Assembly (NCBI GenBank): GCA_963677525.1
Contig: OY781970.1
Location: forward strand, 5,894,802 to 5,926,801
Direction: 5' to 3'
Source of the DNA: an uncultured Draconibacterium sp.
GTDB lineage: Bacteria; Bacteroidota; Bacteroidia; Bacteroidales; Prolixibacteraceae
DNA: 32,000 nt
Position numbers and translations under genes: made by a program. The notes under the pieces were generated by a model, which saw only the letters and a list, made by a program, of their open reading frames with translations, was not told where the DNA came from and made no database searches. Shown here in pieces: positions 9,290 to 25,420 of the stretch (position 1 is the first letter of the stretch; each line of letters opens with the position of its first letter).

Positions 9290-10804
9290 TTAAATCGGTG
9301 CTTTAAATCCGATAAAAAAACCATGTGTCCCGGCCGATGTAAACACATATTCGAAACGAAGTACAAGGTCGTAATAACTCACCAGGTCGAGCCCGGCTCC
9401 CCAACTGTATAAAAATTTGTTGTTGTATGGATTATAATTTGGATCCCCCGGAATATTGGTAGCACTGAAGTTCTTGATATATCCCACATCAGAGAATAAA
9501 TTAAAATATAAGGCGTATTGAATATTAAAAAACTTACTGTCGGGGCTGGCAAATTTCGGTCGCCTGACACCCGGTTCAACCAGCTCGTATTTTACATTTC
9601 CCCTGAAATAGTACATTTTCTCGCCGCGTAAAGCAAAATGGTCGTAACCTCTTAGAAAGTTATCGTCAGAAGTCATATTCAGCATATAATCGTATGACAT
9701 GTTATCGGTAGTCGACGAAACGGCTTTTACCATCTCGGCTACATATAACTTTTTGCTGATGGTTTGGTAGAAATGAAAATCGATACCATAAAAGAAATAA
9801 TCAACGTCGTAGGAAATCAATCCCAGTCCTTTTTTGTCGACAAATCCTTTTAAATACTGCCCTTCCAATGGATAAGCCTGGTTGTTCCGTGAATCGTAAA
9901 TATAGTCGATATAGAAATCGACACTGAACACCGATTGGGCTGTATCGGGTAAAAAATTAGGATTTAATTCGTAAAGCTGATCAGATATTCGTTTGTAGTT
10001 AAACGATAACTTTAAGTTGGAGTAATTGTAAAGTTTTGGGCGAAAGCTCAATTTCGACATAAGCGTTAACGATTCCTTACTCTTTTTTTCGTAAAGCATC
10101 TGGCGTTCGTTATCCTCGGAGCCATATTCAACCACTGCATTTGTTTGATAATCAACGCCGGTTGCCAGACCTATTTTCTGTCCTTTTCCGATCCATGGAA
10201 TATCGTAACCGATGCCATACCTTGATGAACTGCCACCGTAAGCTACCATCCAAAGTTTATGGCTTAATCCCCACAGGTTGTTGTGTCCCAGGAATATACC
10301 CTTGTTAAGTTGATCTTTGTCCCTGTCCGCAAGCCATTCGTTAAAGTTGGGTGCATCTACAGTAACAACCGGAATCGCCCAAATGTACCAACGCTCGGTA
10401 ACATCTATAATTAGCTTGTAATCTTTTCCCTGAATCTGCTGCAGTGTCAGGTCAACGGTAAGGAACAGTTTGGTATTGATAAGGTTTTCGCGGCTGTAAC
10501 TTATTATTTGGGCAAGTTCGGAAGTGGTATCATTAAGCATGATCCTTTTTTTTCCGAAAGAAATAAATCCCCGTTTTGAAGGTAAAGTCGATAATGAATC
10601 GCCCACCTGAAAATCGAGTTCGCGAAGAATTACCTTTTCTTTCGTTTTTTCGTTGCCGTTTATTTCAATGGAACTAATGAAAATGTAATTGCCTGAAAAG
10701 GTGTCAGGCATTCTTATCTCACCGTCTTTGTTTTGCGCGAAAAGCAAGCCCGGTAAGCAGGAGAGAAGTGCAGTCAGAATAAAAATTGGGAATCGTTTCT
10801 TCAT
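9290..10804 (-). CDS. Omp85/BamA-family outer-membrane beta-barrel protein with one POTRA-like domain
   Basis: 504-aa ORF. It has a signal peptide (MKKRFPIFILTALLSCLPGLLFAQ), a POTRA-like segment (ISSIEINGNEKTKEKVILRELDFQVGDSL), and an aromatic/Gly-rich alternating C-terminal region ending GFFIGFKAPI. Confidence 0.7.
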   Translation of the reverse strand: MKKRFPIFILTALLSCLPGLLFAQNKDGEIRMPDTFSGNYIFISSIEINGNEKTKEKVILRELDFQVGDSLSTLPSKRGFISFGKKRIMLNDTTSELAQIISYSRENLINTKLFLTVDLTLQQIQGKDYKLIIDVTERWYIWAIPVVTVDAPNFNEWLADRDKDQLNKGIFLGHNNLWGLSHKLWMVAYGGSSSRYGIGYDIPWIGKGQKIGLATGVDYQTNAVVEYGSEDNERQMLYEKKSKESLTLMSKLSFRPKLYNYSNLKLSFNYKRISDQLYELNPNFLPDTAQSVFSVDFYIDYIYDSRNNQAYPLEGQYLKGFVDKKGLGLISYDVDYFFYGIDFHFYQTISKKLYVAEMVKAVSSTTDNMSYDYMLNMTSDDNFLRGYDHFALRGEKMYYFRGNVKYELVEPGVRRPKFASPDSKFFNIQYALYFNLFSDVGYIKNFSATNIPGDPNYNPYNNKFLYSWGAGLDLVSYYDLVLRFEYVFTSAGTHGFFIGFKAPI

Positions 10805-10909
10805 TTAGTTATCGGTTTTATTCAGGGAATTTATCATCCTGAAAATAAAAAGACTACTTAAAGATACGGATTATGTAAATAAAAAAACAGGGGTAGAGAT
10901 AAGTAAATT

Positions 10910-11269
10910 TTAGGCTGTTTTTGCCACGAGAATAACACCGATAATGATTAACGAAACGCCAATCCACCTGGCAACAGGTACCGCTTCCTTAAAAACAACA
11001 ACGGCGGCAATCATACCGAAAACGTAACTCATGGCCACAAGCGGATAGGCCAGACTGAATTCGTATTTTTTTAGCACGTGAAACCAAAGTAGTGTGGCTC
11101 CCACAATGGTAATCCCCGAAATAGCCAGCGGAATATTTTTCACCACGTTCAGGATATACTCTTTGGTCCAGACGAATTTTCCCAGTTTGGTCATGGCAAT
11201 TTTTAATGTAACCTGCGAAGTAACCAGCAGGAAACTTTGAATGACCATTATGGTAATAAGCCTTAGCAC
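10910..11269 (-). CDS. small 4-TM EamA/SMR-like (DMT superfamily, ArnE/ArnF-sized) membrane protein
   Basis: 119-aa ORF with four hydrophobic helices: ITIMVIQSFLLVTSQV, IPLAISGITIVGATLLWFHVL, LAYPLVAMSYVFGMIAAVVVF, WIGVSLIIIGVILV. The GTG start at 11269 overlaps the upstream stop by 7 nt. ATG at 11248 is an alternative start. Confidence 0.6.
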   Translation of the reverse strand: MLRLITIMVIQSFLLVTSQVTLKIAMTKLGKFVWTKEYILNVVKNIPLAISGITIVGATLLWFHVLKKYEFSLAYPLVAMSYVFGMIAAVVVFKEAVPVARWIGVSLIIIGVILVAKTA

Positions 11270-12333
11270 GATTTTAAGAGTATGAGTGAAATATTCGATC
11301 CCCTGTAATTATTAAAAAGCAACACGTTCGAGATTTTATTCTTTTCCGTGTTCTTTTTTAAGAGCATATAATCCGGTATTGATTGATCCTTAATTATTTG
11401 AGCGGCTGCCCAAAGCCCAAAGGAAGAAGCAGTGTAATAATCGCCCGACAGATGTTTGTACCAGGCAATATTGCTATCGTAACGATCATGAACAGCTGAA
11501 TAAACGTCGTTGAGTTTTTTGTTCCCGTTCACTCCCGAAACGAGTAAATCAATCTCGTTGTCTTTCAGGTTATTTTTTTCGAGGAAGGCAGAAATCTGAT
11601 GCTGCAGATCATCAATGTTTTCAGGTTTATAGATCATTTCCATATCGCAGATTTCGGCATTCGACTTCTCCGATTTTTCGCCGGAAAGCATAAAATAAAC
11701 ACAACCTTCACCTGCGATGGTTCCTTCAGAATCTGAATTGTTCAGCAGTTCGGTATTTTTGATCTTTTCTTTTTTCCAGTAGTCGATTCGTGATAGCAGT
11801 TGAAAATACGATGGTGTCATTTCATCATAACTGCCAACCATCACATTTTTTGCCTGTTTGTCTTCCAAAAGCATCAACCCGTCAATCAGCGAACTCTCGA
11901 ACGAAAAACCGCGGTTCACATAAGTTGAATTGTACCCGTGACATTTCAGCGCAATGGCAATTTGCGAACTTACCGTGTTGTGCGTTGATTGAATGAAAGC
12001 AGTGGGCTGTAAAAATTTCTCATCGTTTTCGATCATCGCTTTCAGGAATTTTTCGGTGTCTTCCATGCACCCAAGTCCGGTTCCTGAAATAATGGCGTCA
12101 GGTTTTTCAACGCCTGATTCGGCAATACAAAGTTTGGCCGCAACAATGGCACGTTTTATTACCAGGCTCATCCTGCGAACGGCAATAGGCGAAATAAAAC
12201 CCTTCGTATCAGGTGTCAAACAACGCAAATGATTGGAGTCGTATTCTATCACCTCTGTTGGCAACCCTTGATTTTCGTTGTTATTTTGAGGCGATATAAT
12301 TCCAGAACCTTGTATGTAAACCGGTGTATCCAA
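11263..12333 (-). CDS. beta-ketoacyl synthase-like protein, chain-length-factor type (degenerate KS, PF13723-like)
   Basis: KS-sized protein directly downstream of a complete KS. It has no Cys-His-His triad in canonical contexts. It carries the QPTAFIQSTHNTVSSQIA block typical of KS N-terminal-like/CLF proteins in aryl-polyene clusters. The ORF is open up to ATG 12384 (47-nt overlap with the KS). TTG at 12333 (MDTPVYIQGSGIISPQ), 4 nt after the KS stop, looks like the more natural start. The start call is uncertain. Confidence 0.7.
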   Translation of the reverse strand: MDTPVYIQGSGIISPQNNNENQGLPTEVIEYDSNHLRCLTPDTKGFISPIAVRRMSLVIKRAIVAAKLCIAESGVEKPDAIISGTGLGCMEDTEKFLKAMIENDEKFLQPTAFIQSTHNTVSSQIAIALKCHGYNSTYVNRGFSFESSLIDGLMLLEDKQAKNVMVGSYDEMTPSYFQLLSRIDYWKKEKIKNTELLNNSDSEGTIAGEGCVYFMLSGEKSEKSNAEICDMEMIYKPENIDDLQHQISAFLEKNNLKDNEIDLLVSGVNGNKKLNDVYSAVHDRYDSNIAWYKHLSGDYYTASSFGLWAAAQIIKDQSIPDYMLLKKNTEKNKISNVLLFNNYRGSNISLILLKSC

Positions 12334-12337
12334 GCAA

Positions 12338-13537
12338 TTAAATTTTAGAAAAAATGAGTGATGTATTGTTGCCGCCGAACCCAAACGAGTTGGTTAAAAC
12401 GTGTTTTAGTTCAACATCTCTTTTTAGCTCTTTTTCAGGAGAGAAAGACAATTCTTCCATTTGGTTCTCGAAGTTCAGATTGGGAGGAATGATTTTTTCT
12501 TCCATCATTAAAATGGAAATAACAGATTCGATTCCGCCGGCTGCACTTGTAGTGTGTCCTGTATATGATTTTGTTGAACTCACAGGCGGAATGTTTTCTT
12601 CAAAAACATTTTGAATGGCTGCTCCTTCCGATGCATCGTTGTTGGGTGTTCCGGTTCCGTGTGCATTAATATAATCAATGTCGGAAGCAGATAATCCGCC
12701 CGATGCAATGGCCTGTTTCATGGCCAGCGTAGCTCCAATTCCTTCGGGCGATGAAGCCGTTTGATGATAAGCATCGCAGGCATTTCCATAACCTGAAAGT
12801 TCGCAACGGGCTTTGGCGCCTCTTTTTTGTGCGTGTTCCTCCGATTCGAGAATCAGGTAGCCGGCACCTTCGCCCAGATTGATTCCGGCCCGTTCATTAT
12901 CGAAAGGGCGGCACTGGTTTTTGTCCAGAATCATCAACGAGTTAAATCCGTTTAGATGAAATTTGGTCAGGCACTCGCTGCCTCCTGCAATCACACAATC
13001 GAGCTTATTGTGTTTTATGAGTCTGGCGCCCAGCATAATCGCGTTTGCCGCCGACGAACACGCCGTTGAAATAGTAGTAACAAATGATTTTATTCCCAAC
13101 AGATCAGCGACTTTCTCAGTGCCCTCGCCACAGTCGTGAACTTCAATAAATTCTTTGTGATCTTCCGATCCCAAAAAATCGTTGTAATACAGTTCACTTT
13201 TTTCCATGCCACCCACCGTAGTTGCCGAAATAAAACCGATTCGCATGCCGGGAACAATCGTGAGATTGGCCGATGCAATAGCTTCTTTTGCGGCATGCAG
13301 GCTAAACAATGTGGTGCGGGTTATCACTTCGCTTTCCGGTAAATTAAGAGCCTGTTTTAATTCCTCATCGCTGCATTTTACTTCTGCTCCCGGCAATTCA
13401 TCTGCATGAACAGTATTCAGGTATTTTAAAGCGCCTATCCCTGTTTTTTGCTGAAGGATAGACTCAACTGTTTCGCCGGCATTATTACCAATACCCGAAA
13501 CAATACCCAAACCGGTAACTACAATGCGATGAGCCAT
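12338..13537 (-). CDS. beta-ketoacyl-ACP synthase (FabF/KAS II-like)
   Basis: 399-aa ORF with a complete catalytic triad in canonical contexts: TISTACSSAANAI (Cys), INAHGTGTPNND (His), YTGHTTSAAG (His). C-terminal NSFGFGGNN. Confidence 0.9.
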   Translation of the reverse strand: MAHRIVVTGLGIVSGIGNNAGETVESILQQKTGIGALKYLNTVHADELPGAEVKCSDEELKQALNLPESEVITRTTLFSLHAAKEAIASANLTIVPGMRIGFISATTVGGMEKSELYYNDFLGSEDHKEFIEVHDCGEGTEKVADLLGIKSFVTTISTACSSAANAIMLGARLIKHNKLDCVIAGGSECLTKFHLNGFNSLMILDKNQCRPFDNERAGINLGEGAGYLILESEEHAQKRGAKARCELSGYGNACDAYHQTASSPEGIGATLAMKQAIASGGLSASDIDYINAHGTGTPNNDASEGAAIQNVFEENIPPVSSTKSYTGHTTSAAGGIESVISILMMEEKIIPPNLNFENQMEELSFSPEKELKRDVELKHVLTNSFGFGGNNTSLIFSKI

Positions 13538-13539
13538 GC

Positions 13540-13797
13540 TTATTTTGTCTTGTTTTCAGAGATATAAGTTGCCATGGAGTTGATCGACTTGAATATCTCG
13601 CGTCCTTTGTTCGGATCGTCGATTTTAATTCCGTAGTTTTTCTCCATCAACACAATTAATTCCAGCGCATCAATCGAGTCTAAACCCAAACCGTCGCCAA
13701 AAAGCGGTAGTTCGTTGTCGATTTCTTCCGGAGTCATTCCTTCCAGGTTTAATATCTCAATAATCTCTTCTTTTAATTTGAAAATTAATTTTTCCAC
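13540..13797 (-). CDS. acyl carrier protein
   Basis: 85-aa acidic protein with the phosphopantetheine attachment motif GLDSIDALELI (DSxD/helix II). It lies 2 nt upstream of the KS. Confidence 0.9.
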   Translation of the reverse strand: MEKLIFKLKEEIIEILNLEGMTPEEIDNELPLFGDGLGLDSIDALELIVLMEKNYGIKIDDPNKGREIFKSINSMATYISENKTK

Positions 13798-13800
13798 AGT

Positions 13801-14427
13801 TTATACTTTGTTAAAAAGGTTATTTATTGTATTCGTTTCAAAGATAATTTTATCTGCTTCCTTTTGCGCTTCAACCAGCATTAAAAATGCAAAATAACTC
13901 TCATTTTTCAATTCGAGCCAACCTGTCAAACATTTTTTGGTTGAAGTTGTGGCGAATAGATGACTGATCGTATCATGCAACATTTTTGCGTCGAAATTCT
14001 CGGAGATTAAAAATGTATTTTCCCCCTGAATTTTATTTCTGATACATATTTCACCAATGGCAATATTGGGTAAAGTGTAAACAAATACCGACGGGCTTGG
14101 GAAATAATTCTCGCCCCGGACAATGGTCTTTTGATACGCCATATCGGTATCGAGCGACGAGCTGCTGTTCATTAAAACAACGCCCATTTCCGGTTTTGGG
14201 ACGTCGCGTTCTGTTTCTTCGCGCAACATTAATTCCGATGCTAAAAATCCCAGTTTTGCCAGCTTATCCATTTTAAAAAATTTTGGATAAGTGATGTAAT
14301 TATGCTTGTACGCTTCAATAATGAACTCCTTAAAATTTTCGCGGCCTTTATCCGAAAAAATTACTTTTCCGTCCATCCGGATTTCTCCGTCGACAATGAT
14401 GCAGTATTTTGAAATCTGTAAAGTCAT
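13801..14427 (-). CDS. truncated KS-like protein (about 208 aa, PF13723-like), probable partner of the upstream KS
   Basis: ATG at 14427 overlaps the upstream KS stop as ATGA. The ORF-track start at 14463 would add 12 residues inside the KS. The SPSVFVYTLPNIAIGEICI block parallels QPTAFIQSTHNTVSSQIA of 11263..12333. There is no active-site Cys context. Confidence 0.65.
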   Translation of the reverse strand: MTLQISKYCIIVDGEIRMDGKVIFSDKGRENFKEFIIEAYKHNYITYPKFFKMDKLAKLGFLASELMLREETERDVPKPEMGVVLMNSSSSLDTDMAYQKTIVRGENYFPSPSVFVYTLPNIAIGEICIRNKIQGENTFLISENFDAKMLHDTISHLFATTSTKKCLTGWLELKNESYFAFLMLVEAQKEADKIIFETNTINNLFNKV

Positions 14428-15578
14428 CGGCTTTGTTTTTGAATTAGAATTGCTGCATTGCAACCGCCAAAACCGGATGCCATTTTTAAACAGGTATTTA
14501 TTTCTGAGGGTGTATTTTCTTCGATGATCTTTATAGGATGTGACACTCCAAGGTTTTCGTAGCCTAAACTTTTTACCAGAAGATTGTTCTCCATCGATAG
14601 TAAGCTTAGCACGGTTTCGATAACACCGGCGGCACCCAGCGTGTGCCCGATGTAGCCTTTGTAGCTGTTAACCGGAACATCCAACAACTCGCTGCGGCTT
14701 AAAGCAATCGATTCCATTTCGTCGTTGTAAATAGTTGCAGTTCCGTGTGCGCTGATAAAATCAATTTTTGGATGATGTAATTCCCCAAGAATATTTTGAA
14801 TGGCCAGGTACAATCCTTCAGCGGTTCGCGACGGACCGGAAATATGATTGGCATCGTTGGTAACACTTCCGGCCTCGATGGAAAATAAAGTTTCAGAATT
14901 GAGTAAATTCTTATCTGAAGACAAGATTACGGTTGCCGCTCCTTCCCCCAGCGACAATCCGTCGCGGGTTTTGTCGAATGGTTTGCACGGGTTTGGCGAC
15001 AGGGCCTTAAACGACTGAAAACCGGACGCAACAAAAGGTGTTACCATGTCGCAGCCCACTACCACCGCGTTTTTAAACTGCCCCGTTTCGATGGCTCGTT
15101 TGGCAACAATTTGCGCCACCATCCCCGAAATACAGGCATGTGAAATGATCAGTGGTTTGTTGGGATTCCCTAAGAAATCCTGTACCAAAGCCGCGCTTTT
15201 CCAAAGGTTAACCCGGTCGGGTTCGTACAACGCTTTTTTCTCTTCCTCCAGCAAGTCGATGTTTCCCTTGGTGGAAGAAATTACCAGCAATGTTTCTTCT
15301 GATTTTACATCCACCCTCGTTTTGGCCAGTGCATTTGAAATGGAGCACAGCATCATTTTTTCAAAACGGGTGTATTCTTTTTCAGTGTGAAATTCCAGAA
15401 AAGCTTCTTCAAGTTTTTGATTGTCGATCCTCGATGCACAAAACGTATCCGGGATATAATACGGATCATCCTGCTTTTTTATTCCGCTCTGGTTCGCGAA
15501 CAAACTTTTTGCATTTTCATCCGATCCAAAACCCAGCGAGCTTATAATATCGTGTGCTATGTAATAAACAGGCTGCAT
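14424..15578 (-). CDS. beta-ketoacyl-ACP synthase
   Basis: 384-aa ORF with a complete triad: IISHACISGMVAQ (Cys), ISAHGTATIYND (His), YIGHTLGAAG (His). C-terminal ASGFGGCNA. Confidence 0.85.
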   Translation of the reverse strand: MQPVYYIAHDIISSLGFGSDENAKSLFANQSGIKKQDDPYYIPDTFCASRIDNQKLEEAFLEFHTEKEYTRFEKMMLCSISNALAKTRVDVKSEETLLVISSTKGNIDLLEEEKKALYEPDRVNLWKSAALVQDFLGNPNKPLIISHACISGMVAQIVAKRAIETGQFKNAVVVGCDMVTPFVASGFQSFKALSPNPCKPFDKTRDGLSLGEGAATVILSSDKNLLNSETLFSIEAGSVTNDANHISGPSRTAEGLYLAIQNILGELHHPKIDFISAHGTATIYNDEMESIALSRSELLDVPVNSYKGYIGHTLGAAGVIETVLSLLSMENNLLVKSLGYENLGVSHPIKIIEENTPSEINTCLKMASGFGGCNAAILIQKQSR

Positions 15579-15580
15579 GT

Positions 15581-16012
15581 TTATTCAATGATTTTCCATT
15601 TCTTTTTCCACTCGATAAAAAATTCCGGTGAGTTCCAAACCAGCTGGTATTTTTTATCTAAAAAAACCTGAACACTGTCGGCTGTCAATACCACGGAATT
15701 ATCTTTTTTATTTCTGATTTCGTATTTGTATTGAATTTTGGCAGCTTCTGAGTTGACAAAAGTGGTTTTTATAATGGCCGAATCGCCATAAACCAGCGGC
15801 TTTTTAAAATCCATATTCATCTGGGTGAGTGGTACAAAATACCCTTCGGTAAGGGTGTCGAGGTAGCCCAGCTTGTATTCTTTCCCGAAAGCCTCGCGTC
15901 CGTCTTCGAGGTATTTTACGTAGCTGCCATGCCATAAAATCCCCATGGAATCTACCTCGCTAAATCGAACTTCAATTTCTTTGGTGGCTGATAATTCTAT
16001 CTTTTTTGTCAT
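15581..16012 (-). CDS. acyl-CoA/acyl-ACP thioesterase, 4HBT (YbgC-like) hotdog fold
   Basis: 143-aa ORF. The N-terminal block EVRFSEVDSMGILWHGSYVKYLEDGREAF matches the 4-hydroxybenzoyl-CoA thioesterase family pattern (Asp followed by V.H..Y..Y.E.AR-like). Confidence 0.75.
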   Translation of the reverse strand: MTKKIELSATKEIEVRFSEVDSMGILWHGSYVKYLEDGREAFGKEYKLGYLDTLTEGYFVPLTQMNMDFKKPLVYGDSAIIKTTFVNSEAAKIQYKYEIRNKKDNSVVLTADSVQVFLDKKYQLVWNSPEFFIEWKKKWKIIE

Positions 16013-16027
16013 AACATAAAAGGGTCG

Positions 16028-16450
16028 CTAAACCAGCGATATTTTCATTTCGCACTCCGCAATTACCTTTCCGTTGCAAACCGATTTTGCATTCACCAAA
16101 GTAATATTAAAGTACTCGTTCATTACTTCAATTTTTGTTTCAATTTCGTCTCCCAACTCCGGGAAGAAATGAATATTAAGATTTTTTATTGCACCAATAA
16201 AACCCAGCCGAACCTCCTGGTTGTTCAAAAATTTATTGATGTAACCCATTCGCGCGGCACAGGTTTGTGCAAAATTTTCGATAATGCCGGCCTCGTAAAA
16301 TTTACCATTCTCAAAAAAGATATTATCCTCACGAACCGTAAATTTTGTGGCCGTAATTATTTTGTCGAACGATGTGAGTTTATCAATCATCAACATGGGC
16401 TGACGTTGGGGAATCAGTTCGAGTATGTCAATTTCTTCCAGATTCTTCAT
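16028..16450 (-). CDS. hotdog-fold FabZ-like (3-hydroxyacyl-ACP dehydratase-like) protein, non-canonical active site
   Basis: 140-aa ORF. ILELIPQRQPMLMIDKL aligns with FabZ ILELLPHRFPFLLVDRV, and IIENFAQT aligns with ILEAMAQA (Glu kept). The FabZ FFQGHFP block reads FFENGKF here. Confidence 0.7.
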   Translation of the reverse strand: MKNLEEIDILELIPQRQPMLMIDKLTSFDKIITATKFTVREDNIFFENGKFYEAGIIENFAQTCAARMGYINKFLNNQEVRLGFIGAIKNLNIHFFPELGDEIETKIEVMNEYFNITLVNAKSVCNGKVIAECEMKISLV

Positions 16451-16453
16451 TGT

Positions 16454-17818
16454 CTAATATCTTAAGTATTCCCAAAGTGGGCCCCTTCGTTTGCGCGCTC
16501 TTAATACGTCGTAAAAATCGCTTTTTTCATCTCCCGGGAAGATCCATTTTTTTCCTGTTGCCAGTCCCATTTCCTTCACATTTTCCAGGTCAACCTCGTC
16601 GGAAATGTAATACACCGGCTTTAATAATTTATCGTCCGGTTTAATTTTTCCTTCGCTCAAAGCTACATTATACAATTCAGTTCCCGGGTAAATCCGCATC
16701 CCGATATAAGGGAAAAATACCGAATGTTCAATTTGTTTGCTGTTTTCGAACGTTTCCTGAAGTGTTTCGTTTGTTTCGCCGTAACCGCCTAAAATAAGGA
16801 AATGCGAAAAGAAAATGCAAAGATCGTTGCAGATTTCCGACTTTTCGAGCACATCCTTAAAACGGAACGATTTTTTATAGCTTTTTAAGGTGGTATCGCA
16901 AAACGCATCGGTACCAAATTCGATGTGTGTGAGACCTGCTTTTCTATACAACTCCAGATCTTCGTATTTTAACGAGGCATCGGGTGCAAAATAAGCGCCC
17001 CAGTTTATTTTTATTCCGCTGTCGATAATTTCCTGGCAAAGCTCACGGTTGTATTTTTTATTGATATTAAAAATTGAATCGGTAAAAAACACGTAGTTTA
17101 TTTTTTGCTCGGTGCTCAGTTTTTTCAGCGTTTTTATAATGGTGTCGATGTCGAGAGTCCGAACTTCTTTTCCTTCAATAACCGGGTAGCTGCAGTAGAT
17201 ACAACTTTTGGGGCAACCCCGTTTTGTCTGGATGTTCAGCATTCCGCTTTTGTTCCAGTAGAAATCAATGTTTTCGAGGTTGAAATCGAGATCCAGGTTT
17301 TGAAGATATTCCGTTCTGGAATTTTGTTGAATGGAACTATTCGATTTAAAAACCAGTCCCTGGACAGTGCTGATATCACCTCCTGTATCAAGCAGGTTGA
17401 TTAATTCAACCAGGCTGTTTTCTCCTTCGCCTTTTACGCCGTAATTGGCTCCCAGAAAATCGAGCAGAAATTCGGGGAAAATGGAAAATCCTGCCCCGCC
17501 AACAATTACCGGGGCACTGGAAACTGCTTTCGCTTTATCAACAATTTGTTTGTACCAGTCGATAAAACTCCCCTTTTCGTAAATGTTGTTGTCGTCGATG
17601 TTGCGCAGCGAAACGCCAATATAACGAATGTCGTTGCCGGCAACAAGAGCGTCTATTTCGTCCAGTTCTTTCAGGTTTAAATCCAGCTCAAGCAAATTAT
17701 ATTCCGGCAGGTGTTTCTTCATGTAGGTGGAAAGATACGATAACCCAATTGGGTAAACCGGGTACGGATCGCAATACCTGTTGGCCGAAATAAGTAATAT
17801 TGACTTGTTTTTGCTCAT
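16454..17818 (-). CDS. B12-binding domain-containing radical SAM protein (lipid-biosynthesis-associated type)
   Basis: 454-aa ORF. An N-terminal cobalamin-binding-like region (ILLISANRYCDPYPVYPIGLSYL...IRYIGVSLRNID...VIVGGAGFS...GVKGEGE) is followed by the radical SAM motif CPKSCIYC (CX3CX2C). It has a 4-nt overlap with the upstream acyltransferase and a 3-nt gap to the downstream hotdog gene. Confidence 0.85.
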   Translation of the reverse strand: MSKNKSILLISANRYCDPYPVYPIGLSYLSTYMKKHLPEYNLLELDLNLKELDEIDALVAGNDIRYIGVSLRNIDDNNIYEKGSFIDWYKQIVDKAKAVSSAPVIVGGAGFSIFPEFLLDFLGANYGVKGEGENSLVELINLLDTGGDISTVQGLVFKSNSSIQQNSRTEYLQNLDLDFNLENIDFYWNKSGMLNIQTKRGCPKSCIYCSYPVIEGKEVRTLDIDTIIKTLKKLSTEQKINYVFFTDSIFNINKKYNRELCQEIIDSGIKINWGAYFAPDASLKYEDLELYRKAGLTHIEFGTDAFCDTTLKSYKKSFRFKDVLEKSEICNDLCIFFSHFLILGGYGETNETLQETFENSKQIEHSVFFPYIGMRIYPGTELYNVALSEGKIKPDDKLLKPVYYISDEVDLENVKEMGLATGKKWIFPGDEKSDFYDVLRARKRRGPLWEYLRY

Positions 17819-18699
17819 GCGGTTTTTTTGTTCATATCGTTCCAGAAATCGTAGAAATTAAACCACTGTTCCGGGTAGATTTTAAGTTGATTTTCTATTT
17901 CTGACACAAAGTTTTCCACCTTTTGCGGAATAGAATCGGCTTCTATTTTTTTAATATAAATGTTGTATGAAAATTTCCCGCTTTTCATTACAAAAAAGGA
18001 AAGTACCGGAACATTTAATTTTTCAGCCATGGTAAACGCTCCTGTTGGGAAATTTGCATCCTTTCCAAGGAAATTGCAAGTGTGAACGCGCGTTTCATGA
18101 AAACTCCTATCGCCCGGCATGCCTACAAATTCTCCTTTTTTTATCACATTCATAATGGTAAACAGGTGCGACAAATCGTGCGATACAGGAATGAGCGAGA
18201 TATTATTGCGGCTTAATATTTCGTCGCGATATTTTAACCAGTTTTTGCTTTCTTCACCAAAAACCAAACCGTGCATTTTCGCTTCTCCCATGCTAAAAAG
18301 ATAGCCCGCAATCTCGAAATTACCGATGTGAGAACTTAAAATGATAGCACCTTTTTTCTCTGCGATTAATTCGGTCAGAATCTCATTCCCCTCAACTGTA
18401 ACCTGAAATACATTTTTTTTACCGGCAAACAATGCTATCCGGTCTAACATAATCTGACCAAAAAGGTAATGGTTGCGAAAGGTCTTAAAAAATGCTTTAA
18501 GAGGAGGCAGATTTAATTTTTGTCGAAAGTAAAAATAAATGGAATTGTAGCCCTTACGGGCAAACAGCAAGTAGAAAGGTATAACAAACCAAAGAATAAA
18601 ATAACCTACTGATAGCGGAAATATTTTGAAAAACCAAAGCAGCAGTTTTATTCCAAAATTTCCTTGTGTTTTCCCTTGCCAATCTCGCGTGTAATTCAC
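17815..18699 (-). CDS. lysophospholipid acyltransferase family protein (LpxL/HtrB lauroyl-acyltransferase-like)
   Basis: 294-aa ORF. It has an N-terminal TM segment (IKLLLWFFKIFPLSVGYFILWFVIPFYLLF) and an SSHIGNFEIAG box (the H-x-G-N-x-E form of the HX4D/E acyltransferase motif typical of the LpxL family). The apparent GTG start at 18699 shares 1 nt with the ACP stop. Confidence 0.75.
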   Translation of the reverse strand: MNYTRDWQGKTQGNFGIKLLLWFFKIFPLSVGYFILWFVIPFYLLFARKGYNSIYFYFRQKLNLPPLKAFFKTFRNHYLFGQIMLDRIALFAGKKNVFQVTVEGNEILTELIAEKKGAIILSSHIGNFEIAGYLFSMGEAKMHGLVFGEESKNWLKYRDEILSRNNISLIPVSHDLSHLFTIMNVIKKGEFVGMPGDRSFHETRVHTCNFLGKDANFPTGAFTMAEKLNVPVLSFFVMKSGKFSYNIYIKKIEADSIPQKVENFVSEIENQLKIYPEQWFNFYDFWNDMNKKTA

Positions 18700-18947
18700 T
18701 ATTTATCTTTTACCTTGCTATAAATATAGTCGTAGAAATCGTTGAGAACTACCACGTTGGTCATTTCTTCTTGTTTTATTTTAAAACCAAAGGCTTTTTC
18801 AACAATTACAACTATATCAACAAAATCGAGGCTGTCGATTTCCAGGTCGTCTTTAATGCGCGCATCCGGTGAAATTACATCCTCGTCAACTTCAATTTCC
18901 TCAACGAGGAACTCATTCATGATTTTTATTACCTCTTCTCTTTCCAT
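18699..18947 (-). CDS. acyl carrier protein
   Basis: 82-aa acidic protein with the attachment motif LEIDSLDFVDIVV. Confidence 0.85.
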   Translation of the reverse strand: MEREEVIKIMNEFLVEEIEVDEDVISPDARIKDDLEIDSLDFVDIVVIVEKAFGFKIKQEEMTNVVVLNDFYDYIYSKVKDK

Positions 18948-19049: not shown

Positions 19050-19601
19050 CTAAAATAAGAAACTTACTCCAAAACTGAGTATACTTACATTATAACTTGT
19101 TTCTGCATACACGGCCAGGCCGTCTGAAAACTGGTAGCGGCATCCTGCAAATATGTCGTGTACAAATTGATTTGGTTCTTCATATTTATAGTAAGCTTCA
19201 TCCTCATAATTACCATTATAATTGTTACCAACAAGGGCATAACCTGCAAGAACTCCGGCGTAAACATCGAAATACCTGAAAAAATCGTTGTGGTTCATTG
19301 CATAAAAATCGAAGTGGTAGGCGCCACGTCCTGCTACTATCCAATAGTTGTGCTTGTTGTCGTAATTCGTGGTATGTTTAAAGGCGCCAAATCCTCCAAC
19401 GCTAATATAACCGATTCCGAGTTTTTCGAAAGGAAGGGTTTCATAAGAGAAGTTAATTGATGGTATTCCGCTTCCACAATACATTAATCCATCAATTCCT
19501 AAACCTAAGTTTACAGCCTGGTCGCCGGTTTCAATTGCCTGCGCCTGCGAAGTTCCATAAGCTATTAGGCTTACAAATAAAATCAATACTAATTTTTTCA
19601 T
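19050..19601 (-). CDS. small outer-membrane beta-barrel-like protein (hypothetical)
   Basis: 183-aa ORF. It has a signal peptide (MKKLVLILFVSLIAYGTSQAQA), a Gly/Tyr/Phe-rich alternating sequence, and a C-terminus SILSFGVSFLF ending in Phe, as in many beta-barrel OMPs. The size fits an 8-10-stranded barrel. Confidence 0.6.
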   Translation of the reverse strand: MKKLVLILFVSLIAYGTSQAQAIETGDQAVNLGLGIDGLMYCGSGIPSINFSYETLPFEKLGIGYISVGGFGAFKHTTNYDNKHNYWIVAGRGAYHFDFYAMNHNDFFRYFDVYAGVLAGYALVGNNYNGNYEDEAYYKYEEPNQFVHDIFAGCRYQFSDGLAVYAETSYNVSILSFGVSFLF

Positions 19602-19624: not shown

Positions 19625-20842
19625 CTAAATTTTTTTAATAATTAAAGCTGAGTTGGTTCCACCAAAACCGAAGGAGTTTGAAAGATAAGTGTCTATCTTT
19701 TGTTCTTTGGTTTTGGCAATAATATTTAGTTTTGAAGAGTGTTCGTCGCCTTCTTCGAAGTTGAGATTAGGTGCAATAAAATTGTTTTGCATCATCAGGG
19801 TTGAATATACAATTTCACTGGCTCCTGCCATCCAGCACTCGTGGCCGGTCATTCCTTTTGTTGAACTTACCGGTGTTTTTACATCTCCAAAAAGTTCATT
19901 GATGGCTTGTGCTTCGTACATATCTCCAAGCGGAGTGGATGTAGCGTGTGCATTAATATAATCGATGTCGGAAGTTTTCATGTTGGCATCTTTTAGTGCC
20001 ATCGACATGGCCCGGAATGACCCCTGGTTGCTGGGTTGCGAAATGTGCCCTCCGTTCGACGAAAAACCATATCCGACAACCTCTGCAAGAATTGGCGCTC
20101 CACGTTTTACTGCATGTTCGTATTCTTCCAAAATAACTGTGGCAGCTCCACCGCTTGGTACCAGTCCATCGCGGTTTTTATCGAATGGGCGCGAAGCTTT
20201 TGTGGGATCATTTACATTCACAGAGAAAGCTCCAAGCGAATCGAAACTTCCCATCGAATAAAAATTGGTTTCCTGAGCTCCTCCGCAAACAATAACATTT
20301 TGCAAGCCATTTTTTATAAAAAAGTAACCCAGACCGATGGAGTGAGAACCACTGGCACAGGCTGCGCTGATGGTCATGTTGATGCCCCGTAATTTAAAGA
20401 TTACCGAAAGATTCATGGTCACCGTCGAGTTCATGGATTGAAAAATAGCTCCTGAGCCCAGCAGCCCGGTATCGCGTTTTTCCATGATGGTATTATTGGC
20501 TTCGATAACTGCTTTTGCCGAGCTGTCGTTACCAAATAGGATGCCCACCTCGTTTTTTTCGAGGAAATCCATGTCTATTTTGGCATTGTCTAATGCTTCT
20601 GCCGTTGAAACATAGGCGTATTCTGCTTCTTCGGCTAAGCCAACACGCATCCTTCTGTCGAGTTTGCCTTTCAGTTTTGGCCGTTCTACCAATCCGGTTA
20701 AAGGAGAACGGTAGCCTATTTCTTTGCGTATTTCTTCTATTCCTATGCCTGAAGTTCCTTTAAATAAAGATTCCTTTACTTCTTCAATGTTTTTCCCAAT
20801 GCAGGCATATGCGCCCATTCCTGTTATTACAACTCTTTTCAT
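19625..20842 (-). CDS. beta-ketoacyl-ACP synthase (KAS I/II-like)
   Basis: 405-aa ORF with a complete triad: MTISAACASGSHSIG (Cys), INAHATSTPLGD (His), MTGHECWMAGA (His). C-terminal NSFGFGGTNS. Confidence 0.9.
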   Translation of the reverse strand: MKRVVITGMGAYACIGKNIEEVKESLFKGTSGIGIEEIRKEIGYRSPLTGLVERPKLKGKLDRRMRVGLAEEAEYAYVSTAEALDNAKIDMDFLEKNEVGILFGNDSSAKAVIEANNTIMEKRDTGLLGSGAIFQSMNSTVTMNLSVIFKLRGINMTISAACASGSHSIGLGYFFIKNGLQNVIVCGGAQETNFYSMGSFDSLGAFSVNVNDPTKASRPFDKNRDGLVPSGGAATVILEEYEHAVKRGAPILAEVVGYGFSSNGGHISQPSNQGSFRAMSMALKDANMKTSDIDYINAHATSTPLGDMYEAQAINELFGDVKTPVSSTKGMTGHECWMAGASEIVYSTLMMQNNFIAPNLNFEEGDEHSSKLNIIAKTKEQKIDTYLSNSFGFGGTNSALIIKKI

Positions 20843-20851
20843 AAATTCCTG

Positions 20852-21580
20852 TTAAGTATGTAATCCTCCGTTTATTGATATGGTTTGACCGGTAATATAC
20901 GAAGCTTTTTTTGATGCTAAAAAAGCAACCACGTTGGCTACCTCTTCAGCTTTTCCAAAACGGTTCATCGGGATAAGCGATTTCAGGGATTTTTCATCCA
21001 GATCTTTGGTCATGTCGGTATGGATGAAACCAGGTGCTACCGCATTAACGGTTACGTTTCTTTTTCCTACCTCCTGGGCCAAAGCTTTGGTTGCACCTAT
21101 TACACCGGCTTTTGCTGCCGAATAATTGGCTTGCCCGGGCAGGCCTTTAATACCCGATAACGAAACTACATTTACAATTCTTCCATACCGATTGGTAAGC
21201 ATGTCTTTAATCAGCCGGCGCGTTACATAAAAAAAGCCGCCAAGACTTATGTCGAGCACGCTGTCCCAGTCTTCATTTGTCATCCACATCAAAAGATTGT
21301 CTTTCCTGATACCGGCGTTGTTTACCAATACTTCTATAACCGAATCGCTGTTTTGCTCCATCCAGGCCATCAGTACATCATCTACCTGCTGGTAGTTTGA
21401 AACATCAAATTTTAACAGCTCGGCTTTTCCTCCTTTTTCTTCAATCAACGATTTTGTTGTGTTGGCAGCTTCGTCGTTCGATGTATAATTAATTAAAACC
21501 GGGTAGCCCATTTCTGCGAGTTGTAAACAAATCTCCCGCCCAATTCCACGTGAACCTCCGGTTACCAGTGCATATTTCAT
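20852..21580 (-). CDS. fabG: 3-oxoacyl-ACP reductase (SDR family, FabG-like)
   Basis: 242-aa ORF with the classical SDR motifs TGGSRGIGREI (TGxxxGxG), NNAG and YSAAKAG (YxxxK). Confidence 0.9.
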   Translation of the reverse strand: MKYALVTGGSRGIGREICLQLAEMGYPVLINYTSNDEAANTTKSLIEEKGGKAELLKFDVSNYQQVDDVLMAWMEQNSDSVIEVLVNNAGIRKDNLLMWMTNEDWDSVLDISLGGFFYVTRRLIKDMLTNRYGRIVNVVSLSGIKGLPGQANYSAAKAGVIGATKALAQEVGKRNVTVNAVAPGFIHTDMTKDLDEKSLKSLIPMNRFGKAEEVANVVAFLASKKASYITGQTISINGGLHT

Positions 21581-21622: not shown

Positions 21623-23143
21623 CTAAATCTCAATTATATTGTTCATTAAGTAATTTTTTACAGTTGCAAGTTCTTTATATTTTGTTGAATCTTCAACAAA
21701 AACAGGGAATACTTCCCTAATTTGTTCATAAATATTACGTGTAAAAGGAGCCATCAAATCCTGACATTTTGCGTAATCAATAGCCTGAAGCAGTGTCATA
21801 AACTGAACAGCCAGCACCTGGTAACTATTATCAATTACTTTTCTGGCGATAAGCGCCGAGTTGGTTCCCATACTTACAATATCCTGGTTGTCGTTGTTGT
21901 TGGTAATACTATGCACATAGTTCGGGAACGAATAAGTCTGGTTTTCAGCGGTTGTTGATGTTGCTGTAAATTGTACACCCTGCATTCCAAGATTAAGCCC
22001 AAGTGTGCCCAGGTTTACAAATGCCGGGAATTTTTCGTTCAATTTCGGGTTCAGCAGAAAATTCAGGTGGCGTTCTTCCAGCATCGACAAGCGGGTGATG
22101 GCAATTTTTAGTTTGTCCATTTCCAGCGAAACATAATCGCCATGGAAGTTCCCTCCGTGGTAAACATTCTGGTTTTTGTAATCGATTATCGGGTTGTCGT
22201 TCACCGAATTGGCTTCGCTTATAATAATGTCTTCTACGCTGTTGATGGTGTCGTAAATCGGTCCCAGAATTTGCGGAACACAACGCAGTGAATAAAATTC
22301 CTGCACCTTCCCGTTAATTACTTTTTCTTTCACATCGCGGTAAAGGTATTTATTCCTGTCTTTAATCATTTTACTACCTGAAAGAAGTTCGCGCATTTTT
22401 GAGGCCACATAATTTTGTCCTTGATGTAGTTTTACTGCATTCAGTACTTCGGCAAAACTATCGTCGTACGAACCAACAATTTCATTTAATATGGTAGATG
22501 AAATCAGCGACCAGTTGAACAGGTTTTTCGCTTTGATCAGGTTTATTGCCCCGATTCCGGTCATTACCGATGTGCCGTTAATCAGCGAAAGACCTTCGCG
22601 CAAATAAATTTTTATGGGTTCCAGGTTGTGAAGTTTCATCACTTCGGCAGTTGGTCTGATTTCACCTTTGTAAAATACTTCACCTTCTCCAATTAATGAT
22701 AGAGCAAGGTGAGAAAGCTGCACCAGGTCACCACTTGCGCCTACTCCGCCGTGTTCGTACAACACCGGACAAATATCAAAATTTATAAAATCCTGAAGTA
22801 ATTTGGGTACCGACGGATGAATGCCCGAGTAGCCTCGTTTAATATTTTGTAACCGGCAGATCATTGCAGCTTTTATGTCGTTGGTAGAAATTGGATTTCC
22901 GCTACCGGCTGAATGACTCCGGATAAGGTTGTATTGCAGTGCTTTATGGTCTTCGTCGTTAATTTTATATTGAGCCATTGGCCCAAAACCGGTGTTAATT
23001 CCGTAAATAACTTTATTTTTTGCAAAATCGGTCAGAAAATTGTAGGATGCTTCCACCCTGGCTAATTCATCTTCTGAGATAGTAACTTCTTTGCCATTGA
23101 ATATGACATCGTGAAAATAATCAAGTTTGATTGTTAAGGTCAT
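21623..23143 (-). CDS. aromatic amino acid ammonia-lyase (MIO enzyme), probably tyrosine ammonia-lyase of the flexirubin FlxA/FjTAL type
   Basis: 506-aa ORF. It has the MIO-forming Ala-Ser-Gly triad in GGVGASGDLVQLSH, plus YGINTGFGPMA, NLIRSHSAGSG and NDNPII blocks. It is the first gene of the polyketide-like operon and no hut genes are nearby. From memory, its length and many blocks resemble the Flavobacterium johnsoniae TAL. Confidence 0.8.
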   Translation of the reverse strand: MTLTIKLDYFHDVIFNGKEVTISEDELARVEASYNFLTDFAKNKVIYGINTGFGPMAQYKINDEDHKALQYNLIRSHSAGSGNPISTNDIKAAMICRLQNIKRGYSGIHPSVPKLLQDFINFDICPVLYEHGGVGASGDLVQLSHLALSLIGEGEVFYKGEIRPTAEVMKLHNLEPIKIYLREGLSLINGTSVMTGIGAINLIKAKNLFNWSLISSTILNEIVGSYDDSFAEVLNAVKLHQGQNYVASKMRELLSGSKMIKDRNKYLYRDVKEKVINGKVQEFYSLRCVPQILGPIYDTINSVEDIIISEANSVNDNPIIDYKNQNVYHGGNFHGDYVSLEMDKLKIAITRLSMLEERHLNFLLNPKLNEKFPAFVNLGTLGLNLGMQGVQFTATSTTAENQTYSFPNYVHSITNNNDNQDIVSMGTNSALIARKVIDNSYQVLAVQFMTLLQAIDYAKCQDLMAPFTRNIYEQIREVFPVFVEDSTKYKELATVKNYLMNNIIEI

Positions 23144-23589: not shown

Positions 23590-25416
23590 TTGCTATTGAA
23601 AGCAGTTTTCCTTTTTATAGTATTCTTATTTGGCACTGTGTTATGTCTGGCTCAGGAAAATTTAGTCGTGCAAAAGATTAAATTCCAAGGCAATAAGCAT
23701 GTACAAACTTACCAATTAAAGGATGAAATTGCCATTGAATCAAGCTCCTGGATAAAAAGAAAGATTTTTAAAAAGGAACCGGTTTATTATACTTCACTAC
23801 TTTATAACGAGGACATTAATCGACTCAGGATATTCTATCAAAAACAAGGTTATTTAAATGTACAGTTTGGCCCGCCCGAGATTGTTGTAAATAAAAAAAG
23901 AAAGGTTGAATTGACTATTTTTATTGATGAGGGAAATCCGGTTTATATCTCTGATGTTTCTTTTCAGGTAGATTCTGTTTACGCCCTCAACGATGTATTG
24001 GAATTACCCGATAAGAAGAAACTTTTATTCCAGACCGAGGCAGTTGCGACTAAAATTTTTCGCGATGAGGCGATAACGAACGACAAGTTGTTGATTGCCG
24101 AAGCCTTTTACGATTACGGATATCCGTATGCTTTGGTAGATCATAAATTGGACGTTGATACCCTGTCTAATACAACTTCGGTTGAATGGTTTGTCAATCG
24201 CGGCCCCATATCTTATTTCGGGCCTACAAACATTACCGGAAATAAAAGGGTTCCTTCTAAAAGCATCCTCCGTCAGCTGGATTATAATGAGGGCGAATTA
24301 TGGAGTAAGAAAAAAATCGATCAAACACAAATGCAAATATACAACCAGGGGAATTACAGGGTAGCTTCGGTAAAATCACAGATTGGGGAAGAGCTTCACG
24401 ATACCATTTCTATGTTAATCAATATTAAGGAAGCTCCGCGATGGTCGGTGCGTTTTGGTGCAGGATACGGTCGTGAAGACAAATTCAGGGCTTTTACCGA
24501 TTTGCAGTACCTGAGTTTTTTAACAAACACCGGGCGCTTGAATTTTTATGCCAAGCATTCGGGGCTTGAACCTTATAATGTTTATCTGAAATTTTCGCAG
24601 CCATCATTTCTGTTTCCCATGAATACTTTAAGTATTTATCCATTTCTGCAGGAAGAAAATGAGCCGGGTTATAAATTAAATAAGATTGGGTATAACATTA
24701 CTTTACTTCAGAGTTTTTCGGAAGAACTGAATACATCGATAGGTTTTGTTTATGAAGATGTTGAGCTTGATACTACCGGCTATTCTGAAAGTAACTCGTC
24801 TACTGATGTGGAATCGATATACAAAAAAACAGGTATCGTTTTGGGAGGAATTTACAATAATGCCGATCCTATTTTAGACCCGGTTCAGGGGTATTCCGTT
24901 TCGTTTAACATTAAAACCAACGATATTTTGTTTACTGGTGAAATTCCGTTTTATAGAATTTTGACAGAGTTTAAAACCTATTTGGGAATCAGGCGGGGAG
25001 TTGTGCTTGCCCTAAAAGGGAAAATGGGTGGGATACAAAGAACCGACGATATGGATTTTATTCCGGTTGACGAAAAGTTTTTTGCAGGAGGAAGTCATTC
25101 AGTAAGAGGCTGGTCGAGGAGCGATCTTGGTCCGCACGATGAAAACGGAGTTCCTGTAGGAGGGAACAGTTTGCTGGAAGCATCGACTGAGTTCAGAATT
25201 GATATGGGGCGAAAACTGAAACTGAATTTATTTATGGATGCCGGTAATGTCTGGGAGCAGTCGTTTGATTATCACCCGGGAGATTTGCATTATGCAACCG
25301 GTTTTGGAATCAGATATAAAACCCCGATTGGTCCGGCAGGAATTGATTTCGCACGCCCGGTTTTTGATTCAGAAACCAATTGGCAGATACACTTTAATAT
25401 TGGGCATACATTTTAG
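23590..25416 (+). CDS. BamA/TamA-family outer-membrane protein (POTRA domains plus beta-barrel)
   Basis: 608-aa ORF. It has a signal peptide (KAVFLFIVFLFGTVLCLAQE) and POTRA-like repeats (VVQKIKFQGNKHVQTYQLKDEI; PVYISDVSFQVDS; YFGPTNITGNKRVPSKSILRQLDYNEGELWS). The surface-antigen barrel contains FFAGGSHSVRGW and ends HFNIGHTF. There is no ATG in the signal peptide region, so the start is TTG at 23590 or 23596. Confidence 0.8.
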   Translation: MLLKAVFLFIVFLFGTVLCLAQENLVVQKIKFQGNKHVQTYQLKDEIAIESSSWIKRKIFKKEPVYYTSLLYNEDINRLRIFYQKQGYLNVQFGPPEIVVNKKRKVELTIFIDEGNPVYISDVSFQVDSVYALNDVLELPDKKKLLFQTEAVATKIFRDEAITNDKLLIAEAFYDYGYPYALVDHKLDVDTLSNTTSVEWFVNRGPISYFGPTNITGNKRVPSKSILRQLDYNEGELWSKKKIDQTQMQIYNQGNYRVASVKSQIGEELHDTISMLINIKEAPRWSVRFGAGYGREDKFRAFTDLQYLSFLTNTGRLNFYAKHSGLEPYNVYLKFSQPSFLFPMNTLSIYPFLQEENEPGYKLNKIGYNITLLQSFSEELNTSIGFVYEDVELDTTGYSESNSSTDVESIYKKTGIVLGGIYNNADPILDPVQGYSVSFNIKTNDILFTGEIPFYRILTEFKTYLGIRRGVVLALKGKMGGIQRTDDMDFIPVDEKFFAGGSHSVRGWSRSDLGPHDENGVPVGGNSLLEASTEFRIDMGRKLKLNLFMDAGNVWEQSFDYHPGDLHYATGFGIRYKTPIGPAGIDFARPVFDSETNWQIHFNIGHTF

Positions 25417-25420
25417 AAAA

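Follow-up and report, generated by a model that had tools for sequence, protein, structure and literature searches.

The cobalamin-dependent radical S-adenosylmethionine (SAM) enzymes include TsrM, the tryptophan C2 methylase, and PhpK, a P-methylase. They also include family TIGR04072 (rSAM_ladder_B12), first noticed in candidate 'ladderane' clusters, for which radical cyclisation chemistry in ladderane synthesis is said to have long been postulated; to our knowledge the question of what this family catalyses dates from 2009 and still awaits an answer, and we know of no genetic system for the anammox bacteria. A member of TIGR04072 is encoded at 16454..17818 on the minus strand of a 32,000-nucleotide stretch of DNA, hereafter the window, from an uncultured Draconibacterium sp. 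of the Prolixibacteraceae (GenBank assembly GCA_963677525.1, contig OY781970.1, positions 5,894,802 to 5,926,801), and it sits inside what its genes identify as a flexirubin-type cluster. Because its nearest relatives are methylases, and because its gene and those for the methyltransferases FlxJ and ApeB exclude each other, the protein is tentatively proposed to be a cobalamin-dependent C-methyltransferase of an aryl-polyene that replaces FlxJ/ApeB. All of the evidence is computational.

Two reviews from 2026 list the reaction of the TIGR04072 'ladderane' enzyme among the unknown transformations (PMC13459092, PMC12931638), and together with Dietl 2023 (PMC10139942) they agree with an earlier sequence-only reading of the window, according to which no reaction was known to be assigned. 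A full-text search of the literature brought up no paper tying flexirubin to a radical-SAM or B12-binding enzyme.

Family, fold and diagnostic residues

The radical-SAM (rSAM) gene, its parts and its two neighbours, each an open reading frame (ORF), are laid out as follows, HMM standing for hidden Markov model.

16454..17818, minus strand: B12-binding/radical-SAM gene (454 aa, ATG start), TIGR04072 member
17402..17767, minus strand: cobalamin-binding Rossmann domain, residues 18-139 (Pfam PF02310, 40.7 bits, cut-off 32.1)
16745..17227, minus strand: radical-SAM core, residues 198-358 (Pfam PF04055, 65.7 bits, cut-off 29.5)
17192..17215, minus strand: CX3CX2C motif CPKSCIYC in the translation, with Cys202, Cys206 and Cys209 as [4Fe-4S] cluster ligands
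17603..17605, minus strand: codon for Arg72 in the translated motif SLRNID, aligned by HMM with Arg69 of TsrM (6WTE)
17815..17818, minus-strand reading: shared ATGA, in which the TGA stop of the acyltransferase gene overlaps the ATG start of the rSAM gene
17815..18699, minus strand: LpxL-type acyltransferase gene (FlxE-like; PF03279, 56.2 bits)
16028..16450, minus strand: hotdog dehydratase gene (FlxF, ApeP-like; weak FabZ matches)

The match to TIGR04072 scores 408.6 bits over a cut-off of 360 (E = 2.6e-122) and runs from residue 7 to 452 on profile positions 2-441 of 443, so the ORF is not a chance one. The traits that go with the family are present, a B12 domain followed by a CX3CX2C rSAM core and, both in the window and around its homologues in 160 loci, genes for acyl carrier protein (ACP), ketosynthase (KS) and dehydratase (DH). 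The sequence-only reading had named the family as 'lipid biosynthesis B12-binding/radical SAM protein', which the score upholds, and NCBI already gives that name to close homologues (Flammeovirga aprica, Bacteroidales metagenome-assembled genomes); the gene is a further member of a named family. It had also described the ORF, the 4-nt overlap, a 3-nt gap (16451..16453) between the rSAM stop and the dehydratase start, CPKSCIYC, a cobalamin-binding-like N-terminus and the two neighbours. All of these recur in the ORFs and sequence, with PF02310 above its cut-off, PF03279 in the acyltransferase and an ApeP/FlxF-type dehydratase for the hotdog protein.

TIGR04072-type homologues form 643 clusters at 50% identity (E <= 1e-30), and ten distant representatives all score best on TIGR04072, nine above the cut-off and one just below it. 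As a member of a divergent clade within Bacteroidota, the window protein has 30-40% identity to the clade that scores highest on the model (P0145 at 608 bits, P0156 at 551 bits); a profile search started from a diverse alignment again returned Bacteroidota proteins, with little gained. The next-best family models are those for BzaD (169 bits), the TsrM family (131) and PhpK (120), followed by two for non-methylases, HpnJ (97) and BchE (92), and this ranking is identical in the ten distant members. Neither of the two leading models claims the protein as its own, at 168.7 bits against a cut-off of 450 for BzaD (TIGR04385) and 130.7 against 500 for TsrM (TIGR04428).

In the PDB the family profile matched TsrM (6WTE) at E = 3e-54, and TsrM is also the top fold match of the AlphaFold2 model (predicted local distance difference test, pLDDT, 92.7), full-length with a TM-score of 0.88-0.89; the class-B enzymes MgmA, AprD4, CysS, OxsB and TokK come next at 0.64-0.74. 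The cobalamin-binding domain aligns with TsrM residues 5-164. All three cluster cysteines are kept in 132 of 132 family representatives, across which the positions aligned to 6WTE were also counted.

TsrM Arg69 (under the corrin): here Arg72; Arg in 129 of 132
TsrM Glu236 (between cobalamin and cluster): here Tyr211; Tyr in 115 of 132
TsrM Glu273 (caps the unique iron): here Ile249; Val, Ile or Leu in 121 of 132 and never Glu

TsrM and OxsB, the two structures without radical methylation activity, have a hydrophilic residue beneath the corrin, and Glu273 of TsrM, by capping the unique iron, prevents SAM cleavage (PMC12931638). The modelled protein thus resembles TsrM in its fold and in how its cobalamin is placed; in contrast to TsrM, it should be capable of binding SAM at the cluster. 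Because the capping glutamate is missing it is classed as TsrM-like in fold only and not as TsrM-type, and with Ile249 for Glu273 and Tyr211 for Glu236 the strictly non-radical mechanism of TsrM is not to be assumed for it.

Conserved context and the absence of FlxJ and ApeB

Two sets of loci were compared. The first consists of 80 Bacteroidota genome loci, found with a 12-sequence alignment, whose homologues are 47-58% identical and come mostly from Bacteroidales, Rikenellaceae, Alistipes, Muribaculaceae, Prevotellaceae and Prolixibacteraceae, with two Flammeovirga; the second consists of 80 metagenome loci of the non-Bacteroidota clade that scores highest on TIGR04072, which gives 160 rSAM loci altogether. 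With AT for the acyltransferase gene, TE for thioesterase and CLF for chain-length factor, the order ACP-AT-rSAM-DH is kept in about 65 of the 80 Bacteroidota loci, and the recurring larger arrangement is FlxA-FlxB-KS-ACP-AT-rSAM-DH-(DarG-DarH-ABC-ABC)-TE-KS-FlxL-ACP-KS-CLF. The immediate upstream neighbour is an acyltransferase gene in 67 of 79 Bacteroidota loci and the immediate downstream one a dehydratase gene in 63 of 79. At the 67 homologous AT/rSAM junctions an overlap of 4 nt is commonest (21), and most others lie within about 13 nt. Proteins in which acyltransferase, B12-binding and rSAM domains are fused occur at two levels of divergence (P0112, 758 aa; P0132, 754 aa), and a relative with 80% identity (L169) has the gene order of the window. 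That the gene is a core member of its operon and not a neighbour, as the sequence-only reading held, is supported by this synteny across 80 genomes.

Coupling in the window reaches further than that reading had it, since the acyltransferase start shares 1 nt with the ACP gene before it (18699..18947), 15 nt separate the hotdog and thioesterase genes, and the next ketosynthase gene comes 2 nt after the latter. A scan for sigma-70 promoters and terminators, of a kind ill-suited to Bacteroidota, gave promoter-like sites below the shuffle mean.

In the non-Bacteroidota set the gene lies in aryl-polyene (APE)-like clusters with the order KS-FlxL-rSAM2-rSAM-GT-AT-ACP-KS-CLF, rSAM2 being a second B12-binding/radical-SAM gene and GT a glycosyltransferase gene; the GT and AT pair amounts to a split ApeJ. 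The top-scoring clade thus has rSAM2 upstream and GT-AT downstream, whereas the clade of the window has AT upstream and DH downstream. The AT-rSAM pair also travels by itself. At one locus (L015, 3386..14701) it is found with an Nramp transporter, an ACP, three FabG-like reductases, a class-I/II aminotransferase, a phosphopantetheinyl transferase, FabD, a FabA-like dehydratase and a KS, on a contig with no tyrosine ammonia-lyase or aryl ligase gene, and this is a different lipid cluster using the same two-gene module. Another locus (L077) has the bare pair, and in six Bacteroidota loci the rSAM gene stands alone.

The ring methyl of flexirubin derives from methionine, and the cluster of C. pinensis carries a putative ring methyltransferase of FlxJ type (PMC3992019, the latter in Table S4). 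Deletion of apeB yields desmethyl aryl-polyene lipids, methylation taking place during chromophore synthesis (bioRxiv 10.1101/2020.12.19.423268). No homologue of ApeB was found in any of the 160 rSAM-containing loci, and none of FlxJ in those loci or in the window. The possibility of stand-alone class-I methyltransferases hidden among unassigned genes was considered and rejected, as a Pfam scan of 143 unassigned in-cluster ORFs gave a class-I methyltransferase domain in at most 5, none of them ApeB- or FlxJ-like.

Control clusters were looked up via FlxA homologues. Those of Chitinophaga (L162), Ferruginibacter (L163) and a metagenome contig (L167) are collinear (FlxA-FlxB-KS-ACP-AT-DH-...-KS), have no rSAM gene between AT and DH, and carry an FlxJ-type methyltransferase and a halogenase after the KS. 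Three compact clusters that have no acyltransferase have neither rSAM nor FlxJ. F. johnsoniae has darA and darB at the position of the rSAM gene, with no methyltransferase and no rSAM gene, and the literature search found no paper on the ring substitution of its pigment. In the acyltransferase-containing clusters examined there is rSAM or FlxJ, never both.

The remainder of the cluster, with counterparts assigned against the ape cluster of E. coli CFT073, is made up of the following genes.

21623..23143, minus strand: FlxA tyrosine ammonia-lyase (816 bits, cut-off 700)
20852..21580, minus strand: FlxB ketoreductase (418 bits, cut-off 340), counterpart of ApeQ
19625..20842, minus strand: ApeR-like ketosynthase (35% identity to ApeR)
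18699..18947, minus strand: acyl carrier protein (FlxD, closest to ApeF; PP-binding domain, 43% identity to ApeF)
15581..16012, minus strand: 4HBT thioesterase (FlxH, ApeK-like; model matches)
14424..15578, minus strand: ketosynthase FlxI
13801..14463, minus strand: FlxL
13540..13797, minus strand: ApeE-like ACP (85 aa, DSID motif, 44% identity to E. coli ApeE)
12338..13537, minus strand: ApeO-like ketosynthase
11263..12384, minus strand: chain-length factor, counterpart of ApeC
4341..5648, plus strand: FlxY 4-coumarate-CoA ligase for activation of the aryl starter (NF053551, 727.5 bits, cut-off 520)
2668..3948, plus strand: second B12-binding/radical-SAM protein (426 aa, CRFSCYPC; weak family matches, TIGR04013 at 55 bits)

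The FlxA, FlxB and FlxY equivalog models are all above their cut-offs in the window. Along the minus strand the gene order of the operon is FlxA, FlxB, KS, a small beta-barrel-like ORF, ACP, AT, rSAM, DH, TE, KS, FlxL, ACP, KS and CLF, the second ACP, between the KS and FlxL genes, being too short for the list of ORFs of 100 aa. The hotdog dehydratase has 48% identity to a Chitinophaga gene carrying PF22817 ApeP-like. The acyltransferase keeps the motif HIGNFE (HX4E) and matches residues 253-550 of ApeJ, the C-terminal half, in BLASTP at E = 4e-28; against ApeD it gives E = 0.13, which disposes of orthology to ApeD, the enzyme that transfers the conjugated fatty acid. For Xenorhabdus the proposal is that ApeJ moves the aryl-polyene from its ACP to the sugar of a lipid anchor (bioRxiv 10.1101/2020.12.19.423268). 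DarA and DarB are absent from the window, where the DarB model finds sub-threshold matches on KS genes only, and they are absent within 10 kb in every rSAM-type locus; nor does a KSIII-type gene recur in such loci. The product may therefore be no true flexirubin, that is, no dialkylresorcinol ester, keeping in mind that the genes could lie elsewhere in the genome, as the dar genes of C. pinensis do. DarG/DarH are missing from the window, and so are the LolA2/LolB2, glycosyltransferase, deacetylase and MMPL exporter genes that flexirubin clusters usually have.

Several other genes of the region deserve mention. The small ORF at 19050..19601 (minus strand, 183 aa, with a signal-peptide-like start), between the KS and ACP genes, has no family match; it has a counterpart in the 80% relative (L169, 13549..14112) and in almost no other locus. 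An ArnE/ArnF-like EamA membrane protein and an Omp85-like protein (9290..11269, minus strand) close the operon, and TamA- and TamB-like genes lie on its other side (23590..29269, plus strand). Two phytoene-desaturase/CrtD-like ORFs stand at 50..820 and 945..2462 (plus strand), the first of which matches the C-terminal half of the family only and may be truncated or frameshifted.

The second B12-rSAM gene is followed by a conserved ORF of 125 aa (3961..4338, plus strand) and is far more conserved than the TIGR04072 gene, with 74-77% identity across Bacteroidota. It is not a paralogue of the TIGR04072 protein, as their alignment is limited to the region of the cluster motif, and a PDB search with it found no useful relative. 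Outside Bacteroidota, a homologue of it directly precedes the TIGR04072 gene in 53 of 79 loci. In about ten Bacteroidota loci it is part of a divergent sub-operon of DarG, DarH, ACP, a sulfotransferase-like gene, rSAM2, the small ORF and ACP. Some distant relatives (P0143, 807 aa; L158, 3111..5614; L160, 8934..11365) have a SPASM-domain radical-SAM protein fused to the TIGR04072 domain or placed directly before it, and in one rSAM-type cluster (L168, 1..1905) a third B12-binding/radical-SAM gene, then a gene for an ICMT/PEMT-type membrane methyltransferase, lies about 8 kb upstream of FlxA.

The proposed methylation and its rivals

The fold and the neighbours suggest methylation of the pigment. 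Of the two chemistries put forward in the sequence-only reading, the evidence speaks more for C-methylation, at an sp2 ring carbon, than for cyclisation, without settling the choice. The gene product, which has the TsrM fold, would depend on cobalamin and a [4Fe-4S] cluster and would be central to a variant form of the flexirubin/aryl-polyene-lipid pathway, in which FlxA would deaminate tyrosine and FlxY activate the product, the KS/CLF, ketoreductase and dehydratase would extend the chain on ACPs, and the ApeJ-type acyltransferase encoded upstream would pass the chain to an acceptor. The rSAM protein would take a methyl group from SAM and, via methylcobalamin, place it on the ACP-bound aryl-polyene, most likely at the ring carbon ortho to the phenolic hydroxyl, which as a nucleophile is well matched to methylcobalamin, as in TsrM. 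It would act beside the offloading acyltransferase, to which it is fused in some organisms, and would stand in for the class-I methyltransferases FlxJ of Chitinophaga and ApeB of E. coli and Xenorhabdus. The methyl transfer, the substrate, the position attacked and the choice between a polar and a radical step are what we infer from family, fold and context.

Several observations weigh against this proposal. The capping Glu273 of TsrM is replaced by Ile, Val or Leu and Glu236 by Tyr211, as in radical enzymes; the protein therefore probably can make a 5'-deoxyadenosyl radical, which a nucleophilic phenol carbon has no need of. The second B12-rSAM partner is conserved and left without an explanation. 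The family also occurs where no aryl starter is visible (the L015 and L077 loci and the six lone genes in Bacteroidota) and, according to the literature, in fatty-acid-synthase-like clusters of anammox bacteria (PMC2649909, PMC10139942). The exclusion of FlxJ and ApeB follows phylogeny, with Chitinophagaceae on one side and Bacteroidales and others on the other, and the control set comprises four clusters, so it could reflect lineage history instead of functional replacement. Some flexirubins and aryl-polyenes are unmethylated, and we know of no product for any rSAM-type cluster. Finally, two FlxU-like exporters of about 1285 aa in rSAM-type loci (L054, 48..3905; L073, 92..3955) have a C-terminal class-I methyltransferase motif near residue 1116. 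An FlxU-like homologue in Ferruginibacter has MMPL, acyltransferase and methyltransferase domains.

Of the other explanations, the one that survives best, though it is judged possible and not likely, is a radical chemistry that does not methylate. The conjugated chain on its ACP, or the lipid product, would undergo a reaction such as C-C bond formation, cyclisation, rearrangement or cross-linking, with cobalamin as a redox partner as in OxsB or BchE and perhaps with the second B12-rSAM as a joint actor. The unique-iron site would be free, given the aliphatic residue at position 249, and Tyr211 matches the aromatic residue that stands between cobalamin and cluster in radical class-B enzymes, while a hydrophilic residue under the corrin is shared with OxsB, which is no methylase (PMC12931638). 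The lipid clusters that have no obvious aryl starter, the bare AT-rSAM module, the frequency of the second rSAM directly upstream outside Bacteroidota and the fused or adjacent SPASM proteins all fit with it, as do the anammox clusters with ACP, FabZ, KS and a phytoene-desaturase-like gene that carry such an enzyme (PMC10139942), the window having its own two phytoene-desaturase-like ORFs. However, the nearest relatives with a characterised function are without exception methyltransferases, we know of no aryl-polyene or flexirubin that is cyclised or cross-linked, and the absence of FlxJ/ApeB from these clusters would be left unexplained. D. psychrophila, moreover, with a reportedly similar cluster that has two radical SAM enzymes, made acyclic polyunsaturated hydrocarbons only (PMC2649909). 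The specific version in which neither the TIGR04072 protein nor the second B12-rSAM is a methylase, and both use radicals to form C-C bonds in conjugated polyenes held on ACP, or to rearrange these, is considered quite improbable.

It is unlikely that the methyl group goes elsewhere, to a carbon of the polyene or fatty-acyl chain or to a lipid or sugar acceptor, by the class-B radical route of hydrogen abstraction and transfer from methylcobalamin. Kinship to methylases together with a free iron site would make the enzyme competent for such a route, and the fused or adjacent acyltransferase and the AT-rSAM pairs outside aryl-polyene clusters are in keeping with a target other than the ring. 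Yet radical class-B methylases have a hydrophobic Trp or Leu under the corrin and not an Arg (PMC12931638), and no flexirubin or aryl-polyene lipid with a branched polyene chain is on record.

That the rSAM protein replaces DarA/DarB, and builds, or aromatises without oxygen, the partner moiety esterified to the polyene, is very doubtful. The many rSAM-type clusters that keep DarG, DarH (456 bits against 300) and the ABC genes with no DarA/DarB within 10 kb are what suggest it. Non-Bacteroidota clusters, however, have the enzyme with no DarG/DarH, as does the window, the missing dar genes can be encoded elsewhere as in C. pinensis, and a cobalamin rSAM enzyme is no obvious substitute for a KSIII-type Claisen/Michael cyclase. 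Membership of an unrelated characterised family (BchE, HemN-type oxidase, HpnJ or MiaB), with the gene a mere operon neighbour, has next to no chance of being right and is refuted by HMM scores and conserved context: the matches that might suggest it are weak and far below their cut-offs (BchE 92.5 against 481, HpnJ 97.1 against 578), no coproporphyrinogen-oxidase/HemN-type model matched among the family models scanned, the gene's position is kept in about 65 of 80 genomes and it is translationally coupled on both sides. The sequence-only reading, which had named such a non-lipid family as the outcome that would overturn it, stands in this respect.

Significance and comparison with known systems

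Methylation of the aryl-polyene ring, the preferred reading, gives a prediction for mass spectrometry, a loss of 14 Da when the enzyme is missing, and would add a new substrate class to aromatic methylation of the TsrM/BzaD kind. If the enzyme is not a methylase it offers a way into radical lipid chemistry; should radical C-C chemistry prove true, Bacteroidota and APE-like clusters would make an undescribed cyclised or cross-linked polyene lipid and would be tractable non-anammox models of the chemistry that builds ladderanes. TIGR04072 emerges as a constant and translationally coupled member of a pigment-lipid operon that is very common and occurs in gut, rumen, sediment and marine Bacteroidota, and as these include named Flammeovirga species, knock-outs and labelling may be feasible. 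We have not found discussed before the fixed place of the gene in aryl-polyene operons of Bacteroidota primed by tyrosine ammonia-lyase, the TsrM-like fold with mixed diagnostic residues, the ApeJ-type identity of the partner acyltransferase or the mutual exclusion with FlxJ/ApeB. The findings further suggest that 'ladderane' cluster calls in non-anammox genomes may be aryl-polyene-like lipid clusters with this enzyme.

With the candidate ladderane clusters of anammox bacteria the window shares a B12-rSAM of the same named family, a dedicated ACP, a FabZ-like dehydratase, several KS and a phytoene-desaturase-like gene; as published descriptions have it, the anammox clusters differ in having no tyrosine ammonia-lyase, aryl ligase or ApeJ-type acyltransferase, and a ladderane product is not expected from the cluster of the window. 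TsrM (6WTE, 6WTF) is alike in its RN.D motif with the Arg under the corrin, its TDS.FN strand and its three-domain layout, but identity is about 20%, TsrM has 575 aa against 454 aa here, and its substrate is free tryptophan, in contrast to the thioester-bound aryl-polyene or lipid proposed for the window protein.

BzaD (TIGR04385), of the anaerobic dimethylbenzimidazole pathway, is the second-best family at 169 bits here and up to 233 in other members. It is a predicted Csp2 methylase of 5-methoxybenzimidazole, acting on an aromatic carbon next to an oxygen substituent, and that predicted type of reaction is the one proposed here (PMC12931638); the score is nonetheless far below the cut-off of 450, the genomic context is different and BzaD itself is not characterised biochemically. 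FlxJ of C. pinensis and ApeB of E. coli and Xenorhabdus are proposed to do the same job in otherwise collinear clusters, but as class-I SAM methyltransferases they have an unrelated fold and other cofactors, so that the likeness would be an analogy of role and not of family.

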